Shown here in pieces: positions 1,561 through 62,815 of a stretch of DNA of 62,815 bases. Position 1 is the stretch's first letter, and the number at the start of each line of letters is the position of its first letter. The notes under the pieces were generated by a model. The model had not been told where the DNA came from and did not search any database. It worked only from the letters and a program-made list of their open reading frames with translations. Source of the stretch: Leptolyngbyaceae cyanobacterium. GTDB lineage: Bacteria > Cyanobacteriota > Cyanobacteriia > Cyanobacteriales > Aerosakkonemataceae. The translations under genes were made by a program, and so were the position numbers. The stretch is from assembly GCA_036703985.1 (NCBI GenBank), contig DATNQN010000123.1:1-62815 (forward strand), in the 5' to 3' direction.

Positions 1561-4482
1561 TTATTGGCAAATCCCCAATAGACTGGCGACTGCTTTTGCT
1601 AGTTCGGCTGGTTCTACTGGTTTGGATAAGTGAAGTTGAAAGCCTACCGAAACTGCTTGTTTGTAATCAGCTTCTCCTGCATAGGCGGTAAGTGCAATGG
1701 CGGGAATTTTTCCTCCTCGTTCTGGTGATAAGTTTCTCACTTGTCGCATTAAAGTGTAGCCGTTCATATTGGGCATTCCAATATCGCTTAACAGTAAATC
1801 TGGGTTAAGTTGGGGTAATAATTTTAGCGCCTCCAAAGCGGAATCGACGGCAGTTACTCGCGCACCATAACGTTCTAGCATAAAAGTGAGAAAGTCTAGG
1901 GTATCTATATCGTCATCTACCACTAAAATGCTGATGCCATTCAGATCGACTGTGCGATCCCATTTGGTTAGATTTTCTCTAACTTGCGATCGTACTGGCA
2001 TCAACGGTAGCAAAAGCGTAAAAGTTGCTCCTTTTCCCTCGCCTGCACTATCTGCTAAAATTTTACCTCCGTGCAGTTCCGCCAAATGGCGCACAATTGC
2101 TAACCCTAAACCTAAACCGCCAAATTTTCTAGTGGTAGTGCTATTTTCTTGACGAAAGTAATCAAATACATAAGGTAAAAAATCCGGACAGATACCTTTT
2201 CCCGTATCTTTAACTTGAATTTTAGCATATTGGAGGATTAACAATTGGCGATCGGTCGAAGCCTTTACTTCATTTTCTTCGCTCGACTGCTCGCTTTCCG
2301 ATAGCAATGACAATTGAATTTCAACTTTGCCTCCTGGTGATGTAAATTTTATCGCATTAGAAAGGAGATTCCAAATGATTTGCTGCAATCGATTTGGGTC
2401 TCCTAAAACCCAAAATTTTTCATTTTTAATAGATAATCGCTCTAATTCATTCCCCAGCATTAATTCTAAGTTACCAATCTCAATTTTTTCATTTTCCATG
2501 AAAAATTGCAAGTCAATTAATTTCGCTTCCGACGCTAAATATACTGTATCGATCGCTGCTTCAATGATAAATTTTAAGTCAACTGGACAAATGTTTAAAC
2601 TGAGCTTTCCTTGTAAAATCCGGGAAACATCTAATAAATCTTCAATCAATTGAGTTTGTAATCGAGCATTGCGTTCGATGGTTTCTAATGCGCGTTGAGT
2701 AGTCGCTCGATCGAATTCATTAGTAAGTAATAATTCCGACCAACCGACGATCGGATTGAGAGGCGATCGCAATTCGTGGGATAGCACTGCTAAAAACTCA
2801 TCTTTTATTCGGTTAGCGGCTTCTGCTTCTTCTCTAGCTGTTCTTTCTCTTTCTAATAAATTGATTCTTTCTTCTTCTTCTTGTTTGCGTTTCGTAATAT
2901 CACCAAAAGAAATCGCTACCCCATCATTTAATTTTACCGTCATATTGCGGAACCAACCGTTAATGCCTTCCGAATTATATGGAATCTCAATATCATGAGG
3001 TATTCCCGTTTCTACCACCTGCACGTATCGATCGAATAATTCGCTGTTAGTTTTATTTCCCGGTAATACTTGGAGAAGATAATGACCGACTAATTCTTCA
3101 ATCGATTTACCTAAAATTTCTGCCGCTTTGGGATTAACGTATTCCCACTCAAAATCAATAATTTTTCCCTCGGCGTTTCGCACGCTTCGCAAAATAGTGA
3201 AAGCATCTAAAGATAGTTCTTGAACGATCCGAAAACGCTCTTCACTTTGTTTAAGTGCTTCGATTGCTTGTTGCCTTTCCGTTACATCTTCAACTAAGGA
3301 AAGCACGGATACCAAGTTGCCAAATTCATCAAATAAAGCGGAGTTATACCAATCGCAATAAATAACCGAACCATGCTTGGTATAGTTACGATTGCGGTGG
3401 ATAATTTGCTTTTCTGTACCGCTGAGTATTTGGTTAACTACATCTTCAATTGCTGCTTGGTCTTCCTTAAACACAAATTGCCAATCATATATATGTTTAC
3501 CCACGACTTCTTCAGCAGACCATCCAAATATTTTTTGAGCTTTTTTCGACCACCAAGTAACTCGCAAATCTCGATCCCATTCTATTACTGCAAGTGGAGT
3601 ATTTTCTACGTGAAAAGTTAGTCGCTGCAATGCACTTTCTAAAGCTTCTCGTGCAAATTTACGTTCGGTGATGTCTTCAGCAAGACCAGCTATGCGGTAA
3701 ATTTTACCAGCATTATCTCGGAGCGGAAAACCGCGATCGCGAATCCACCTTACCGATCCATCCTGATGCAGTATCCGATATTCTTCTTCAAATCCTTCTT
3801 CAAATACCTGTTCTGAAAAAGCTTTTGTTACCCGTTCTTTATCTAGAGGATGAATTGCTTCTAACCATTCTAAAGAGTTATCATATAAACTTTCACAGGA
3901 ACGTCCCCAAATTTGTTGATAAGCAGAACTAACGTAAATTAAATGAGAATTGAGATCTCTAATCCAGAAAACATTATTCTGGATATTTTCTGATAATTGA
4001 CGAAGGCTTTCTTCAGATTTTATCAGTTTAATTTTTATTGGTTTATTCTCGTTAATGTCTTTTTTACTTAACTCCAAGCTTTCATTTTGCAAAGCGAAAG
4101 CCTTTAAGTAAAAAGCAATAATATCGGTTAATATATTGGTAAATTTATAGCCTGTTTTCGTATTGATTAAGATGCCGATAACCCCGCCCAATAACAAATT
4201 CACTGATATAAATAAAAGCAACTGGATGACTAAAGAAGGGAAATTTTCCTTGTCAGGTGATGATAATAAAAAGTGGCTATAACCAATAGCAGCTAATATG
4301 TTAGCCAGCAATGTCGTTCTTGCACTGCCATAAATAGCGCTGACAATGACTGCTAAATAAAACAGTGAGAAAAGATTTGGTACTAAGAATGGCTGGACTA
4401 GCAGGTTTAACAAAAATGCGATCGCAAACGATCCTATTGTTACAATATATGGTTGTAAGATAGTAAGTATTATTTTTAACAT
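1561..4482 (-). CDS. hybrid sensor histidine kinase/response regulator (membrane N-terminus, multiple PAS, HisKA, HATPase, C-terminal REC)
   Basis: Hydrophobic N-terminal ~150 aa. Repeated PAS-like blocks. H-box FLAVLSHELRSPLN. HATPase G-boxes (DTGKGI..GGLGLGLAI). Receiver domain with VDDD...D..MPNMNG..K. Confidence 0.8.
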   Translation of the reverse strand: MLKIILTILQPYIVTIGSFAIAFLLNLLVQPFLVPNLFSLFYLAVIVSAIYGSARTTLLANILAAIGYSHFLLSSPDKENFPSLVIQLLLFISVNLLLGGVIGILINTKTGYKFTNILTDIIAFYLKAFALQNESLELSKKDINENKPIKIKLIKSEESLRQLSENIQNNVFWIRDLNSHLIYVSSAYQQIWGRSCESLYDNSLEWLEAIHPLDKERVTKAFSEQVFEEGFEEEYRILHQDGSVRWIRDRGFPLRDNAGKIYRIAGLAEDITERKFAREALESALQRLTFHVENTPLAVIEWDRDLRVTWWSKKAQKIFGWSAEEVVGKHIYDWQFVFKEDQAAIEDVVNQILSGTEKQIIHRNRNYTKHGSVIYCDWYNSALFDEFGNLVSVLSLVEDVTERQQAIEALKQSEERFRIVQELSLDAFTILRSVRNAEGKIIDFEWEYVNPKAAEILGKSIEELVGHYLLQVLPGNKTNSELFDRYVQVVETGIPHDIEIPYNSEGINGWFRNMTVKLNDGVAISFGDITKRKQEEEERINLLERERTAREEAEAANRIKDEFLAVLSHELRSPLNPIVGWSELLLTNEFDRATTQRALETIERNARLQTQLIEDLLDVSRILQGKLSLNICPVDLKFIIEAAIDTVYLASEAKLIDLQFFMENEKIEIGNLELMLGNELERLSIKNEKFWVLGDPNRLQQIIWNLLSNAIKFTSPGGKVEIQLSLLSESEQSSEENEVKASTDRQLLILQYAKIQVKDTGKGICPDFLPYVFDYFRQENSTTTRKFGGLGLGLAIVRHLAELHGGKILADSAGEGKGATFTLLLPLMPVRSQVRENLTKWDRTVDLNGISILVVDDDIDTLDFLTFMLERYGARVTAVDSALEALKLLPQLNPDLLLSDIGMPNMNGYTLMRQVRNLSPERGGKIPAIALTAYAGEADYKQAVSVGFQLHLSKPVEPAELAKAVASLLGICQ

Positions 4483-4778: not shown

Positions 4779-6281
4779 TTAGCGCACGTATTTTTCTAAA
4801 TCTTTAATTTGCGGATCGGGAAACTGTTTAATAATTCGCCACAAAACGATATAACTGCCATCTAAACGACGGTAAACTGGTTGAAAAGCGATCAACAAAT
4901 CAATGCTAGGAGTTTCGAGGAATAGATTGAGATTGCGTTGTTGGTTATTGGTAAGTGGTTCGCCAGTTAGAATAAAATCTGGTAATTTAAATTGAATAGT
5001 GCGGAGTAGATAAGTATGATTTAAAACTACTGGTGCTTCGGTAAGAATAGGTTGGGGTAAACCAAAATTTTGCTGTTTACCAGTGATAAATTTTCTGCGA
5101 TCGACTTGTAAAGCTTCTAATTGGGTTGGGGGAAGATATTCAAGAAAAAAACTTTGGGTGGGCGTGACAAAATTATCTAAAGTACGATCGATATCTTGAA
5201 TAGGAAAATTTCCTAAATCCACTAAAAACCCATAATTTAATTCTCGGTTAGCTAATTGAAAGTTATCGTTGTTAATTTGTAATTCTAATCGAGGAACGAA
5301 CTCATTAACGGGATTGAATAAAGGTGGAAAATCGATGCTTTGTGCAAAATTTTGGATTAAACGATTTCTCAGTATATTTTGTTCCGGGCGGTAGAATTCA
5401 GAGGGCAAAATTTGAGCGATACCAGTGTTTGGTAAAGAGAGAAACTGACGATATGGTTGTGCATTAATTGGATAAATACTGTAATTATTAAATTGATTAA
5501 TATTAGCTAACCGATCCGGTTCGGTAAATTCAGTTCCGTTTGGGAAAAATCGGCGTGCTTGGTTGAGAAATGCTTTGGCAGCTAAGAGGGGGGTAGTTGC
5601 TTGAACGGGCGTTGCGATCGCAGGTGGAAAAGGCGGCTGATAATTAGCTATAGGTTGTTTGGCTGTTCTGCCAATTATGGGTGGTGGTGCTGGTGGTAAA
5701 TCCGGTAACGGTGATAATCTGGGTGTGGCTGGTACGGATAAGTCACCCCGTTCGATTCTGGGAATACCCAAAATGCGATCGCGTCTGATTTCTCCAGTTA
5801 CTAACGGTAGCGGTTCGACTACTTCCGCTATTCCACCTAACATTGCTAAACGCCGATCTAAAATTGGTCGAAGCGAGTCTAATTTTTGAGTAGAAGCGAA
5901 GAGATTGCAGTAAGCTTTGACTTGATTTTCATCCAACGATCCGACAGGGGGAACGCTATCGAATTCGCCGGGAATTACTCCACAAAGAACGCTGGGAATT
6001 TGATAATAGCGTTTGAGTAAGCGATCGACAGCAAAAGTGTGAAGTAATATTTGTCCCCTGACGAGTCTGACTCGGTTGGGATCGGCGCTTACTAACGCTT
6101 GTTCGATCGCAGCAATTAAATTAATTTGGTCTTGTACGAGTTCTTGGGCTGGTGGCCAAAAATCTGGTAATTCCTGGGATGGAAAAAAGTTGGAGGGATT
6201 TTCTACTGCTTTGACTACAGTTGGTGGTAAAAGCAACCCTAACCAGGAAAATAAACTAAGGATTAAAAAGTAGTAACGCAT
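4779..6281 (-). CDS. hypothetical secreted Pro-rich protein
   Basis: 500-aa ORF with cleavable signal peptide (LLLPPTVVKA). Pro-rich central region. No recognisable catalytic motif. Confidence 0.4.
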   Translation of the reverse strand: MRYYFLILSLFSWLGLLLPPTVVKAVENPSNFFPSQELPDFWPPAQELVQDQINLIAAIEQALVSADPNRVRLVRGQILLHTFAVDRLLKRYYQIPSVLCGVIPGEFDSVPPVGSLDENQVKAYCNLFASTQKLDSLRPILDRRLAMLGGIAEVVEPLPLVTGEIRRDRILGIPRIERGDLSVPATPRLSPLPDLPPAPPPIIGRTAKQPIANYQPPFPPAIATPVQATTPLLAAKAFLNQARRFFPNGTEFTEPDRLANINQFNNYSIYPINAQPYRQFLSLPNTGIAQILPSEFYRPEQNILRNRLIQNFAQSIDFPPLFNPVNEFVPRLELQINNDNFQLANRELNYGFLVDLGNFPIQDIDRTLDNFVTPTQSFFLEYLPPTQLEALQVDRRKFITGKQQNFGLPQPILTEAPVVLNHTYLLRTIQFKLPDFILTGEPLTNNQQRNLNLFLETPSIDLLIAFQPVYRRLDGSYIVLWRIIKQFPDPQIKDLEKYVR

Positions 6282-6539: not shown

Positions 6540-7079
6540 ATGGCGCTCAGTCGTTATCAGCGTGCTTTTGGCGTAATTCTCCACCGTCGAAATGTTGACG
6601 CGGCTTTTAATGAGTTAGAAGCAGCTGGTTTTCCGATGAATAAGATTTCCGCAGTGGCGAGAGATCCCGAACAGCAAAAGGTTGAACTGCGAGAAGTTAA
6701 AGGTAATAAAGCACAGGATGGAACTACCATCGGCGCGATCGCAGGTGCTACCGTAGGAGGTACGGCTGGGTTAGCTGTGGGACTAGCAACTGCCGCCGCA
6801 CTGCCAGTAGTAGGCCCATTGGTGCTAGTTGGCGCAGCAGCAACCGCTTTGGCGACTACTCTGACTGGTGGAATTATGGGTGCTACCGCAGGTGGCTTAA
6901 TTGGTGCTTTGATTGGTTATGGCATTCCGGAAGAACAAGCAACACTATATCGCGATCGCATATATCAAGGCGATTATCTAATTATGGTGGAAGGATCGGA
7001 GGCTGATATTCGCCAAGCCGAAGCCATCCTCAGCCGTTGGGATATTCAGGAATTTAGGATTTATGACATGACGCGGTGA
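6540..7079 (+). CDS. YflT/general-stress-protein-17M-like protein (Gly/Ala-rich membrane segment)
   Basis: N-terminal RRNVDAAFNELEAAGFP...ISAVARD block resembles the YflT/DUF1269 stress-protein family. Central GxxxG/Ala-rich hydrophobic stretch. Confidence 0.45.
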   Translation: MALSRYQRAFGVILHRRNVDAAFNELEAAGFPMNKISAVARDPEQQKVELREVKGNKAQDGTTIGAIAGATVGGTAGLAVGLATAAALPVVGPLVLVGAAATALATTLTGGIMGATAGGLIGALIGYGIPEEQATLYRDRIYQGDYLIMVEGSEADIRQAEAILSRWDIQEFRIYDMTR

Positions 7080-59426: not shown

Positions 59427-61583
59427 TCATTTTGGCACAGACCAAGAACGAACTTCGCCCAAAGTGACGGGAATTCTGTCACTCACATCAACGGTAAACC
59501 GATAAACCCTCTTCGCCCTGCGACTGTTTTCCGGATCGAAAAACTTTAATATCACATCCCAACAATCGCTATTAATCCGACAAAACGGGCTTTTTTCTAC
59601 TTCAATCGTATCGAGTTGCATTCCTCTGGAAATCGCTTCAGCGAAGCTCGAAGCTGCTTGGAAAGCGTTAGTAACGGAAAAATTCAACGCCCTGTCTTTA
59701 GAAGTTTGTCCTAAATTTTGGAACTCAAAATAAACTTTATTTACGAAGCTAATAAGAGCTTGTCGCATGGCAATTTCATCAACTTGCGGTGCTTGGGCAG
59801 CGACACTTTGCAAAGCTGCTTCGACTAAATTGTTGATTTTCCAACCGTACATTCCCCTGATATTGATTAAGGTAATTACGGGAATTTCTTGCCCTGAAAA
59901 TAGCTGCACGGTTTTATCGGTGGTTTTGGCGGGAATGCTGACACGTTCGATAAAATCATCGCTGTCTTCCGGTTCAATTTGTCCCGCCAACATCAGGATC
60001 AATGTTTCGTAGACATCCGCAGCAAAACCCTGTCTTGGTTCTAAGACATAAATGGGTTTAAGTTCTTGATTGAGCGTCCAAATTAAGGCTTTGGCTTCAC
60101 TGGGATTTTCTGAGAGATAATCGACCATTTGACGGGCATCGTAGGGATTGGGGGGAATTACTGTACCGTCAATTTCAAATGCTGGCATGAGTTGTTTGAA
60201 GGTGTCGCGCCTAGCTTCGCTGCCAAAGTCGTAACCGATGGTTCCCAAGGCGTAGACGAGTTTGGAGGCGGCGCTGGGAGTGATGCCTTCGGTGGGTTGA
60301 CTGGGGGTGAGGGTAACAACCGTTGTATTGGATGGTTGCGTTGTACCGCAGTCCGCCTGGGAATCAGTGATGCTGTTGGCGAATTCGGAAAACCTAACCC
60401 CCCAACCCCCTTCCCTCGCAGGGAAGGGGGAGTCCGAAAGCCCCTCTCCTCTTAGGGGAGGGGTTGGGGAGGGGTCATACCCCTCAGTTAATTTAGCAAC
60501 AGCATCGTTGATTTCCGGGTGAATTGTGCTAAAAGGTTGAATACTGGTTAACGGTTCTCCGGTTAGTAATTGGAATGCACCGGGAATATTTAATTTACCC
60601 ATTAAACAGCGTTCCGGTTCTTCTACTTCTTTAGGGTTGCAAGGAATAGCACTATTTAAAATAGCTTGGCGAACTGCCTCGGCATCGGGTTTTTCGCCGC
60701 GTTGCAGTTGTATGCTCATTAATAATGCTGAGATTCCGGTAACAATGGGTGCAGCGCAACTGGTGCCTTTTTCGCGAATCGGTTCGTCGGTTCCCGGTTG
60801 TGCGCCTAAGATATTTTCCCCATTTGCCATTACGCCTTTACTTTGATAATCTCCACCATAATTACTGAATTTAAAAGGTTGTCCGTCATCGCGGATTGCA
60901 CCGACAGTAAGGACTCCGGGAAGAATGGCAGGAATGCACCAACATTCTCCTTTGTTGTTGCCACCAGGAGCGACAATTAAAATATTATTGTCTTGGCATT
61001 GTTTGACAGCACGAGCAAATAATTCATGGGATACCCCTGTTTGAGTGGGGTGACAGGCGGCGATGTGGATAATGTTTGCGCCTGCTTTTAAGGCTTCGTT
61101 GATAGCGTGGGTGAGGTTAATGGGAGAGATGAAGTCATCGCCTGCGAAGGAAATGGGAATATTAATAGCCGTGCAATGGGGGGCAATGCCGGGGACGGGT
61201 GAACCGTGTTGTCCTAAGATGGTACTGGCAATGTGGGTGGCATGACTGGATAAGTCGATGCGTCTGCGAATCTGTTCGGGGAACCGGGCAAAAAAGGCTT
61301 CTCTTTCTTTTTTGGTTTCGTCCTTGTTGTGGTCTGGGTCTGCTTCTTTTTTGGCTTTTTGTTGTTGGTTAAATTCTGTAGCTAATTTAAGGTAGTAATA
61401 ATATTCGTCGTTTAGTTCGATATCTTCTGCCCAATAAGGTTTAAATTGGGTAATGTTTGCGCCAACAAAGCAACCCCGTTCTAAGTCTGCTGCACCGTCG
61501 AGGATGGCGATTTTGATGCGGGGGTCGCCTTTTGTCCGCTTCCAAAGTTCCGGTATTCCGGGGATGGTGATGAGGTCGGGCAT
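59427..61583 (-). CDS. patA: cyanobactin N-terminal protease PatA/AcyA homolog: S8 subtilisin-like domain plus PatA/PatG-type C-terminal domain
   Basis: Catalytic triad blocks ILDGAADLERGCF (Asp), SHATHIASTILGQHGSPVPGIAPHC (His) and GTSCAAPIVTGISALLMS (Ser). The C-terminal ~250 aa, ending CRINSDCWDVILKFFDP...YRFTVDVSD..PVTLGEVRSWSV, match the domain shared by PatA and PatG. Confidence 0.8.
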   Translation of the reverse strand: MPDLITIPGIPELWKRTKGDPRIKIAILDGAADLERGCFVGANITQFKPYWAEDIELNDEYYYYLKLATEFNQQQKAKKEADPDHNKDETKKEREAFFARFPEQIRRRIDLSSHATHIASTILGQHGSPVPGIAPHCTAINIPISFAGDDFISPINLTHAINEALKAGANIIHIAACHPTQTGVSHELFARAVKQCQDNNILIVAPGGNNKGECWCIPAILPGVLTVGAIRDDGQPFKFSNYGGDYQSKGVMANGENILGAQPGTDEPIREKGTSCAAPIVTGISALLMSIQLQRGEKPDAEAVRQAILNSAIPCNPKEVEEPERCLMGKLNIPGAFQLLTGEPLTSIQPFSTIHPEINDAVAKLTEGYDPSPTPPLRGEGLSDSPFPAREGGWGVRFSEFANSITDSQADCGTTQPSNTTVVTLTPSQPTEGITPSAASKLVYALGTIGYDFGSEARRDTFKQLMPAFEIDGTVIPPNPYDARQMVDYLSENPSEAKALIWTLNQELKPIYVLEPRQGFAADVYETLILMLAGQIEPEDSDDFIERVSIPAKTTDKTVQLFSGQEIPVITLINIRGMYGWKINNLVEAALQSVAAQAPQVDEIAMRQALISFVNKVYFEFQNLGQTSKDRALNFSVTNAFQAASSFAEAISRGMQLDTIEVEKSPFCRINSDCWDVILKFFDPENSRRAKRVYRFTVDVSDRIPVTLGEVRSWSVPK
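60393..60476. repeat. GC-rich palindromic small dispersed repeat inserted in-frame in the patA-like linker (encodes PPLRGEGLSDSPFPAREGGWGV)
   Basis: Two adjacent hairpins CCCCCTTCCC-TCGCA-GGGAAGGGGG and CCCCTCTCC-TCTTA-GGGGAGGGG, flanked by CCCCAACCCCC / GGGGTTGGGG. Related to the element at 53942-53991. Confidence 0.5.
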
Positions 61584-61926
61584 TGGGGGATTTTAGTTAA
61601 ATGCTTAGTCGAAAATGTATTTTACGTGAATTGGTTTACCCTCAAGGATAAGATTTATAACTATAGAGATATGTGTAGGTTGGGTTTCGTTCCTCAACCC
61701 AACATTCATTCATCGATTGTGTTGGGTTTCGCTGTCGTTCGATCCAAGCTACAGTAAATAAGTTTGCAAAAGTCGCAGTCCCGTTTTGCTTCGCCACCGT
61801 GCCAGCTAACGGAAAACCCGGAACTGACTCATGTTTTACGTCAATTCATTGAGGCAAACAGAGCGCAATCGTGAGGTGGAAAAAGAGTTTTGACATGAGT
61901 TGAGGTAAGTGGTTGAATCGGGGCAG

Positions 61927-62103
61927 TTACTCCGCGTCGTCGCCCACAAACGGAGTTTGATAACAAAAATACCTATCTTCCGTTTTATCACAATGAGTAA
62001 ATCCGAAAAGGGGAACCACCCCTTTTTTTCCCGCCCAAGAAGTGGCAGTGATTTCGCGTTGCACAGGAGCAACTTGTTGGGGTCTAATATTTTTCTTTCT
62101 CAT
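61927..62103 (-). CDS. cyanobactin (anacyclamide-type) precursor peptide, 58 aa from the internal Met
   Basis: Leader MRKKNIRPQQVAPVQRE carries the conserved KKNxxPxQxxPVxR cyanobactin motif. C-terminal ...CYQTP-FVGDDAE-stop is the F(A/V)GDDAE C-terminal recognition tail, preceded by Pro. Confidence 0.7.
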   Translation of the reverse strand: MRKKNIRPQQVAPVQREITATSWAGKKGVVPLFGFTHCDKTEDRYFCYQTPFVGDDAE

Positions 62104-62177
62104 GATTGTTTGTTTCAAGCTTACTTGTTGGGATTGATTATTGACTTAATCCATTGGCTTGTCAATGCTGATACAGA

Positions 62178-62339
62178 TTACTCTGCGTCGTCGTCCGCAA
62201 AAGGAACGGCGTGGACCCACAAGGACGCCCCCACACCCACGGCGGCGGCGAACATAGCCAGCGGGCCGCGGGAGGTGCTACCAGCTTGGGGACGTTCAAC
62301 GGGAGCAGCCTGAGTGGGTTTTAGGTTTCTTTTTTTCAT
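62178..62339 (-). CDS. cyanobactin (anacyclamide-type) precursor peptide, 53 aa from the internal Met
   Basis: Leader MKKRNLKPTQAAPVERP. C-terminal ...GVGAS-LWVHAVP-FADDDAE-stop. Second precursor gene 60 bp upstream of the first, same strand. Confidence 0.7.
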   Translation of the reverse strand: MKKRNLKPTQAAPVERPQAGSTSRGPLAMFAAAVGVGASLWVHAVPFADDDAE

Positions 62340-62529
62340 GGTGTTTGAGTTCGGAGAGAACTTGTTTGATGCCAATTGTTGATTACTTAATAACTTCTGT
62401 CAAGATTCTATTGAGTTAACTTTTGTCAATGGCTCAAATACCACCCAAAACGCAACATTGAGTAGATTTTAAACTTTTATATAATAATCCTTGAGGGCGC
62501 GCATTTTATTAATAATAATGATATCGTTC

Positions 62530-62815
62530 CTACTCAACCAAACGCTTATGGGTAGTCTTCGACTCAGCTATCCAACTCATGTAAGGTTTAAGATGGCGTT
62601 CCACAAACTCCAACATCGGTGGATTGCGGCTACTAACAGCATAAGCATAATAGGGAATTGCGCGATCGTACTGACGCTGAAATGACTCTGCCATTAGCAC
62701 GATTCCTCGTCCCAAACGCTGCCATCTTTTGTCCACAAACATAGAGGTGTAGCGAAGTGTGTCAGGTGCAACGCGGTGAGTTACCATCCAACCCACGACT
62801 TCACCTTGATAGCGC
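62530..62815 (-). CDS. GNAT-family N-acetyltransferase, N-terminally truncated by the window edge
   Basis: VDKRWQRLGRGIVLM equals the acetyl-CoA-binding (R/Q)xxGxG/A motif. The reading frame is open to the last base of the window. Confidence 0.4.
   Translation of the reverse strand, partial: RYQGEVVGWMVTHRVAPDTLRYTSMFVDKRWQRLGRGIVLMAESFQRQYDRAIPYYAYAVSSRNPPMLEFVERHLKPYMSWIAESKTTHKRLVE

Follow-up and report, generated by a model that had tools for sequence, protein, structure and literature searches.

What peptide is made from a cyanobactin precursor that carries two cysteines in a cluster without a visible heterocyclase? This question is raised by a 58-residue open reading frame, E2, at positions 61927..62103 (minus strand) of a 62,815-nucleotide stretch of contig DATNQN010000123.1 from a Leptolyngbyaceae cyanobacterium, the whole of which is referred to here as the window. 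Read from 62103 to 61927 on the minus strand, stop codon included, E2 translates as MRKKNIRPQQVAPVQREITATSWAGKKGVVPLFGFTHCDKTEDRYFCYQTPFVGDDAE. The NCBIfam profile TIGR04446 matches this translation with 68.6 bits (E = 4e-19; curated cutoff 35), PF19158 (Pfam DUF5840) is annotated on an identical product, and the same 58-residue product is encoded on contigs of six independent public sequencing runs. From the TIGR04446 score and the recurrence of the identical product in these six runs, we conclude that E2 is a real gene and no chance reading frame.

E2 was assigned to the anacyclamide/piricyclamide (PirE/AcyE) type. Its residues 3-16, KKNIRPQQVAPVQR, contain the leader motif KKNxxPxxxxPVxR defined in PMC3428304, and its single core, with the conserved terminal proline, is followed by a tail of the FAGD(D)AE type (...QTP, then FVGDDAE). 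The patellamide/microcyclamide type is defined by a TIGR03678 score above cutoff, a LAELSEE leader, cores ending in Cys with an (A/S)YDG tail, and PatD. TIGR03678 reaches 26.7 bits with E2 (cutoff 39.6) and covers residues 1-20 only; a full-length match, LSEE and an SYD tail are all absent from E2, and PatD is absent from the window and from contig L001, which extends the locus beyond the window. By these features E2 fits all that is expected in sequence of an anacyclamide/piricyclamide precursor and fails what is expected of the patellamide type; its original assignment is borne out. A profile search returned 1493 members of this precursor family, from which 122 sequences were sampled.

The limits of the core were placed with an alignment, A1, of 40 family precursors (E2 and 39 relatives). 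On the C-terminal side, P51 and F52 are invariant, and A53 G54 D55 D56 A57 E58 are conserved in at least 90% of the sequences. The recognition sequence of E2, FVGDDAE (RSIII; family consensus FAGDDAE; 61930..61950, minus strand), has Val at position 53, where at least 90% of the relatives have Ala. On the N-terminal side, the absence of a G(L/V)E(A/P)S motif was rightly noted in the original prediction, but the boundary is clearer than was assumed there: absence of GLEAS is normal in the anacyclamide/piricyclamide family, and alignment A1 puts the junction after Leu32. The four closest homologs (P0001-P0004) share the leader through ...G(E/K)KG(M/V)(V/I)PL, and their next residue is F, S, T or N. 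In the alignment, GVVPL of E2 lies opposite QVTAQ of AcyE-like precursors from Dolichospermum and opposite ALFAS of Planktothrix precursors, whose next residues are TECDIFTKQCTP; a further relative, P0005, reads ...GEKGLFAS and then TQCDLATKQCTP. Because these two cores are near-copies of the proven 12-residue piricyclamide TFCDLATKQCYP, the junction was placed one residue past the conserved Ala/Pro. The AcyE junction itself we take to be ...QVQAQ followed by TSQIWGSPVP. We infer from the alignment that the A protease would cut E2 after Leu32; a 20-residue core beginning at Leu32 might be produced instead.

The resulting leader consists of residues 1-32 (MRKKNIRPQQVAPVQREITATSWAGKKGVVPL; 62008..62103, minus strand), and the predicted core of residues 33-51 (FGFTHCDKTEDRYFCYQTP, 19 residues; 61951..62007, minus strand), the variable region after the conserved G(M/V)(V/I)PL. 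As originally described, the core is charged (D, K, E, D, R and H; net charge about -1) and holds two cysteines. These are residues 38 and 47, or core positions 6 and 15 (codons 61990-61992 and 61963-61965), with 8 residues between them (C-x8-C) and not the 14 first counted. The core ends in ...QTP, with Thr at P2; Thr at this position is disfavoured by PagG, whose RSIII is FAGDDAE (bioRxiv 10.1101/2020.03.17.996157), and many natural cores of the family likewise end in TP. No copy of any of 33 published core sequences or fragments is present in the loci fetched or among the 122 family proteins.

Within the window, E2 has a second precursor gene on one side and a protease gene on the other, all on the minus strand. 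The precursor gene E1 (62178..62339; 53 residues) lies 74 bp upstream; its product ends in ...AVGVGASLWVHAVP followed by FADDDAE, has no Cys and scores 42.5 bits with TIGR04446 (cutoff 35). The gene 343 bp downstream (59427..61583) encodes a 718-residue cyanobactin macrocyclase/protease (TIGR03895, 868.6 bits; Pfam S8, PatG_D and PatG_C) with the triad Asp29/His114/Ser275 and an adjacent Cys276. The structures of PagG (PDB 4h6x) and of the PatG macrocyclase (4aks) align with this protein from residue 7, across the capping-helix insert, whereas those of A-type proteases (4h6w, 4h6v, 3zxx) align only from residue 110. Thus, the protein is a G-type macrocyclase, and since it begins directly at the protease domain, it is without an oxidase domain. 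An exact look-up of the 718-residue protein in public assemblies gave no match. Its residues 146-150 (61134..61148, minus strand) read FAGDD, a copy of the C-terminal recognition sequence of the substrates. An embedded recognition sequence has been hypothesised for PagG, for which the Ser-Cys dyad has also been described (bioRxiv 10.1101/2020.03.17.996157), and the FAGDD segment matches this idea. The genes downstream of G encode a TPR protein, a ferritin-like protein and a hybrid histidine kinase, from which we conclude that the cluster ends past G. An inverted repeat between E2 and G was considered as an attenuator and rejected (folding z-score -0.98, not significant), and the GTTGGGTTTCG repeat within it is not above chance.

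At its other end, the window cuts a tandem-GNAT gene (62530..62815, minus strand), which is 301 residues long in relatives; Pfam Acetyltransf_1 is found in a full-length relative. With the 301-residue protein of locus L009 as the tblastn query, residues 208-301 were matched in the window and residues 112-301 in L001. The GNAT gene of the E2 cluster is thus cut down to the part for the last 190 residues, and the first GNAT domain, the one that scores strongly, is gone; the remnant sits between E1/E2 and the remaining cluster genes. The 301-residue gene recurs beside precursor genes in the closest clusters, with one copy in L009 (7814..6909) and three copies or fragments in L007 (4787..3885, 5763..5281 and 6962..6792). 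Acylation of Lys or Orn by GNATs is known from other RiPP classes, and none of the RiPP acyltransferases listed in PMC13647313 is from a cyanobactin pathway.

The rest of the cluster could be read from contig L001, on which E1 and E2 are identical to those of the window and which continues for 7.4 kb outside the window (L001 positions are converted to window numbering by subtracting them from 70228). Outward from the edge come the remainder of the GNAT-like gene, a DUF29 gene, a Uma2-family gene and a third precursor gene, E0 (MTKKNLRPQQVAPVQRETNATLSGEKGASASFITAILPPFAGDDAE; TIGR04446, 64 bits). These are followed, in divergent orientation, by genes for a 659-residue A-type protease (PatA; L001 4497..2518), PatB (TIGR04220) and PatC (TIGR04447), and by a gene for a VWA-like protein of about 547-549 residues with two similar halves and weak VWA-like matches (L001 1840..191, minus strand; about 68388..70037 in window numbering). 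Both proteases, A and G, are full length. The VWA-like protein stands behind PatA-PatB-PatC in all close relatives, including L008-L011, whether a heterocyclase is present or absent, and since the genes past it are unrelated among these relatives, the cluster is taken to end there. The Uma2 and DUF29 genes (L001 5687..7150, between E0 and E1) are an insertion within the cluster; the A-B-C genes and E0 lie on one side of it, and E1, E2 and G on the other.

Among species-representative genomes, the best match to this cluster is a MAG whose PatA is 98% identical, and the closest loci are from Microcoleus and Kamptonema. PatA is also 95% identical to that of L008 (Microcoleus asticus IPMA8), a cluster with LAELSEE precursors, PatD and ThcOx. 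Cyanobactin pathways of different chemistry appear to exchange their A-B-C-VWA half. In L007, the closest MAG locus, a polyproline segment occurs twice in the variable region of one precursor (3684..3466, minus strand; ...STSMDWRIPPPPPPGTSMGWQIPPPPPPFAGDDAE), a core unusual for the family.

The fate of the cysteines depends on whether a heterocyclase is encoded. In tblastn searches with two cyanobactin PatD, three PatF and one ThcOx oxidase, none was found in any of the three sequences examined (window, L001 and L007). A profile HMM made from 41 PatD homologs gave a best E-value of 1.4 against all open reading frame segments of the window and L001. One PatD match in the window (60488..60399; 30 residues, E = 0.001) was dismissed as the low-complexity linker of the G protease. 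Neither a YcaO protein nor a prenyltransferase was found across about 70 kb, that is, the window plus the 7.4 kb beyond its edge. The absence of a heterocyclase from the window, first noted from the sequence alone, is thereby upheld, and a YcaO gene just past the edge, which would have altered the picture, did not turn up in these 7.4 kb. With no heterocyclase in either part, the cysteines are expected as thiols or a disulfide, not as thiazolines, in agreement with the earlier expectation.

A wider set of 80 loci, fetched with a PatA query, has the same division. PatD is absent from all loci with PirE-type precursors (19/19) and present in 40 of the 80, of which 29 have LSEE-type precursors and 11 have no precursor by pattern search; none of the 80 mixes PirE-type and LSEE-type precursors. 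Heterocyclisation is directed by the RSI leader element (review PMC4663559), and neither LAELSEE (RSI) nor LSEE occurs in the E2 leader. Heterocyclisation in trans is therefore unlikely, given a leader without RSI and the lack of any locus among the 80 that combines a PirE-type precursor with PatD. A PatF-type prenyltransferase is typical of, though not universal in, the family named 'prenylated cyclic peptide'; no PatF homolog is present in the window, L001 or L007, and the F gene is also missing from other PirE-type loci, such as L014 and L019. Without an F gene, no prenylation is expected.

The chemistry of paired cysteines in such clusters is known. Leikoski et al. (2012; PMC3428304) described piricyclamides from heterocyclase-less clusters, with a double cysteine pattern in some core regions. 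For TFCDLATKQCYP (pirE4) and TLGCMNGTERCLGLP, one disulfide each was demonstrated by 34S labelling and by a gain of 116 Da after reduction and carboxyamidomethylation, and in E. coli, with no additional enzyme supplied, the pirE4 product was obtained with its disulfide formed (PMC3428304). Table 1 of the same study also lists predicted 22-residue acidic C-x8-C cores, DWGTFCVQEDGEGNCKEWYEVP and GWGTFCVGEDGDGNCEEWYELP; these double-Cys pirE cores were never detected as products by LC-MS in Microcystis. Disulfide formation in cyanobactins is considered spontaneous (review PMC4663559).

Like the disulfide-bridged piricyclamides, E2 has a double-Cys pattern in its core, and both of its cysteines are kept in P0001-P0003. 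Across the 122 sampled family members, the variable region has no Cys in 106, one in 3, two in 11, three in 1 and four in 1, compared with Poisson expectations of about 94, 25 and 3 for zero, one and two; the sample includes related sequences, and comprises at least 7 unrelated double-Cys core types versus 3 single-Cys cores. With double-Cys cores above and single-Cys cores below expectation, cysteines in the anacyclamide/piricyclamide family come in pairs, as selection for disulfides predicts. The view that E2 represents an unusual chemotype thus gives way: disulfide piricyclamides were proven in 2012, and 13 of the 122 members (about 10%) have at least two Cys. That is, a disulfide macrocycle from a heterocyclase-less cyanobactin cluster is chemistry already described, to which E2 adds a new example. 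One metagenome protein from ENA, P0035, has four Cys in its 17-residue core (GFCGCRDVDERLCKCTP), which would allow two disulfides on a head-to-tail ring.

Homologs of E2 tell how its core evolves. In every copy seen the reading frame is intact, which argues against the idea that E2 might be a degenerate copy; L007 has an intact ortholog, and so has a Kamptonema MAG, whose ortholog (P0001) has the same order of E2 and then G. In the more distant P0002 and P0003, the core flanks differ, yet T-E-D-R-Y-(F/Y) and the two Cys codons are retained, with synonymous variation (AGG, CGG or CGT) at the Arg codon of this loop. Conservation of the loop, with synonymous Arg codons, in divergent cores argues for purifying selection on C-x2-TEDRY(F/Y)-C. 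The loop is a mildly new feature, conserved across otherwise divergent cores; it has no mention in the searchable literature, and a literature search for disulfide cyanobactins of Kamptonema or Microcoleus returned nothing relevant. We tentatively consider, at somewhat less than even likelihood, that E2 and P0001-P0003 form a subfamily of 19-20-residue bicyclic cyanobactins with this conserved loop and a core more constrained than the leader. The core-coding 57 nt (61951..62007) are identical between the window and the Kamptonema MAG (L087), and the leader differs at seven codons. An identical core with a differing leader is the reverse of the usual cyanobactin pattern of conserved leader and hypervariable core.

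Upstream of E2 lies a promoter-like site, TTGACA-17-AATAAT (62137..62165, minus strand; 11 of 12 consensus matches), which ends 34 nt before the start codon. Its -35 box, TTGACAAGCC, is conserved before E2-like genes in L087, L088 and L090, and E1 has a promoter-like site of its own (62403..62375). As consensus matches only, the E2 site and its -35 box are regarded as a putative promoter. About 25 nt right after the E2 stop codon (61903..61926, minus strand; CCGCCCnATTCAACCACTTACCTCAA) are likewise conserved among the divergent E2-like genes of L087, L088 and L090; promoter, precursor gene and 3' flank appear to travel together as one cassette.

Taken together, we consider it probable that E2 is a functional precursor in a heterocyclase-less, proline-type cyanobactin pathway that yields a 19-residue head-to-tail ring with one disulfide. 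E2 is a family member encoded by an intact gene, with a G-type macrocyclase gene downstream and PatA, PatB and PatC genes beyond the window edge. In the proposed pathway, the A protease would remove the 32-residue leader, cutting after Leu32 and freeing the amino group of Phe33. The G macrocyclase would then recognise Pro51 and FVGDDAE, release the tail and join Pro51 to Phe33, so that the 19 core residues form the ring cyclo(FGFTHCDKTEDRYFCYQTP), closed head to tail. Without a dedicated enzyme, core residues Cys6 and Cys15 would oxidise to a disulfide. The peptide would thus be bicyclic and unprenylated, and its monoisotopic mass is calculated as 2336.962 Da ([M+2H]2+ 1169.488). Disulfide formation may occur only after export or extraction. 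Several points count against this model: the macrocyclase would have to tolerate Val in RSIII and Thr at P2, the long double-Cys pirE cores were never detected as products, and the cluster is disturbed by the inserted Uma2/DUF29 genes and the truncated GNAT gene.

Other outcomes have to be weighed against this bicyclic product. It is unlikely, though deserving of some weight, that the ring is made but its cysteines stay free thiols in the reducing cytoplasm of the producer, in which case any disulfide would arise as an artefact during extraction, or the thiols would have a different role, such as metal binding. No thiol oxidase is encoded in the cluster, and the disulfides of cyanobactins are thought to form spontaneously (review PMC4663559); however, two-Cys piricyclamides were isolated as disulfides, in E. 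coli included (PMC3428304), and the family-wide pairing of cysteines together with the conserved C-x8-C loop points to selection for a bridge. We assign a low probability to E2 being a decaying or silent extra copy that gives no product. Such a copy would be consistent with the several leader positions, and the one in RSIII (A53V), at which E2 deviates from the family consensus, with the mobile-type genes and truncated GNAT gene of the cluster, and with the failure to detect long double-Cys pirE cores by LC-MS in Microcystis (PMC3428304). Decay is nevertheless hard to reconcile with a reading frame that is intact and identical in six independent assemblies, with the intact orthologs in L007 and the Kamptonema MAG, with core DNA equal to that of the Kamptonema copy and a loop kept through synonymous changes in P0002 and P0003, with a promoter-like site whose -35 box is conserved, and with A and G proteases of full length.

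A linear product, which the original prediction had entertained, is not favoured, as a Pro-type macrocyclase gene follows E2 and the core ends in Pro before F(V/A)GDDAE. In that case cleavage would take place and the long charged core or the FVGDDAE variant would block macrocyclisation. Linear cyanobactins do exist, and the Val in RSIII could be read in this way, but the known linear examples are thiazole-terminated peptides of 3-5 residues (review PMC4663559). In the G enzyme, the capping-helix region of macrocyclases occurs together with the Ser-Cys dyad known from Pro-specific cyclases, the core of E2 ends in the invariant Pro, and anacyclamide rings are known up to 20 residues; we therefore hold a linear product to be quite improbable. 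Highly improbable, finally, is a YcaO heterocyclase encoded elsewhere in the genome that turns the E2 cysteines into thiazolines. Some Microcoleus genomes do hold two cyanobactin clusters, and the 95% identical PatA of Microcoleus asticus occurs in a cluster with PatD and ThcOx. Against such an enzyme acting on E2 stand the missing RSI (LAELSEE), the combination of a PirE-type precursor with PatD in 0 of 80 loci, a G protein without an oxidase domain, and a core that ends in Pro, not Cys.

The disulfide-bridged ring proposed for E2 has its closest counterparts in the disulfide piricyclamides of Microcystis (TFCDLATKQCYP and TLGCMNGTERCLGLP; PMC3428304). These share with E2 the KKNxxPxxxxPVxR leader, the Pro-ended core and the FAGDDAE-type tail, and their clusters likewise have no heterocyclase, a G protease without oxidase and several precursor genes. 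In the piricyclamides, two core cysteines form one disulfide on a head-to-tail ring, which for E2 is predicted. The E2 core is longer (19 residues with C-x8-C, as against 12 and 15 residues with C-x6-C), its tail reads FVGDDAE, E and G have no prenyltransferase (F) gene between them, and the host is a filamentous, Microcoleus/Kamptonema-like cyanobacterium. The predicted pirE cores DWGTFCVQEDGEGNCKEWYEVP and GWGTFCVGEDGDGNCEEWYELP resemble E2 in being long, strongly charged, C-x8-C and heterocyclase-less, with a product that is only predicted, but they are more acidic and have no similarity in loop sequence.

The anacyclamide (acy) cluster of Anabaena sp. 90 (Leikoski 2010, via PMC2854353) is bidirectional like that of E2, A, B and C forming one arm and E and G the second; it also lacks PatD, its AcyG is without oxidase, and its N-terminal flank is unlike GLEAS. 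Anacyclamide rings consist of 7-20 proteinogenic residues, of which one, a Pro, is conserved; in contrast to E2, none of the anacyclamides tabulated in PMC2854353 has a Cys pair, and the acy cluster has an F homolog. PagG of the prenylagaramide pathway (PDB 4h6x; bioRxiv 10.1101/2020.03.17.996157) is, like the G protease of the E2 cluster, a proline-specific macrocyclase with an embedded RS-like sequence and FAGDDAE as RSIII, and its Asp29-His113-Ser274 and Cys275 correspond to D29/H114/S275/C276. The pag cluster, however, has PagF, and its products are Tyr-prenylated 7-mers. The ulithiacyclamides (pat-type, Prochloron) are cyanobactins with a spontaneous disulfide, as proposed for E2, but are octapeptides whose other cysteines are heterocyclised by PatD and whose leader is of the LAELSEE type. 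Outside cyanobacteria, SFTI-1 and the plant cyclotides are head-to-tail rings braced by one or more disulfides and made via asparaginyl endopeptidase. The likeness of E2 to these plant peptides, a comparison also drawn in PMC3428304, is an analogy only, as biosynthesis and sequences are unrelated.

E2 changes little in the biosynthetic logic of the family, since heterocyclase-less disulfide cyanobactins have been known since the piricyclamides, and it adds evidence for paired cysteines in anacyclamide/piricyclamide precursors. For natural-product mining its use is modest, as an exact mass to seek in mats of the Microcoleus/Kamptonema type. If the proposed product is correct, it would be larger than any disulfide cyanobactin of confirmed structure (12 and 15 residues). 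The conserved loop, C-x2-TEDRY(F/Y)-C, is a possible marker of an epitope for target binding, and a core-constrained subfamily, if true, would reverse the rule of hypervariable cores and imply a specific molecular target.
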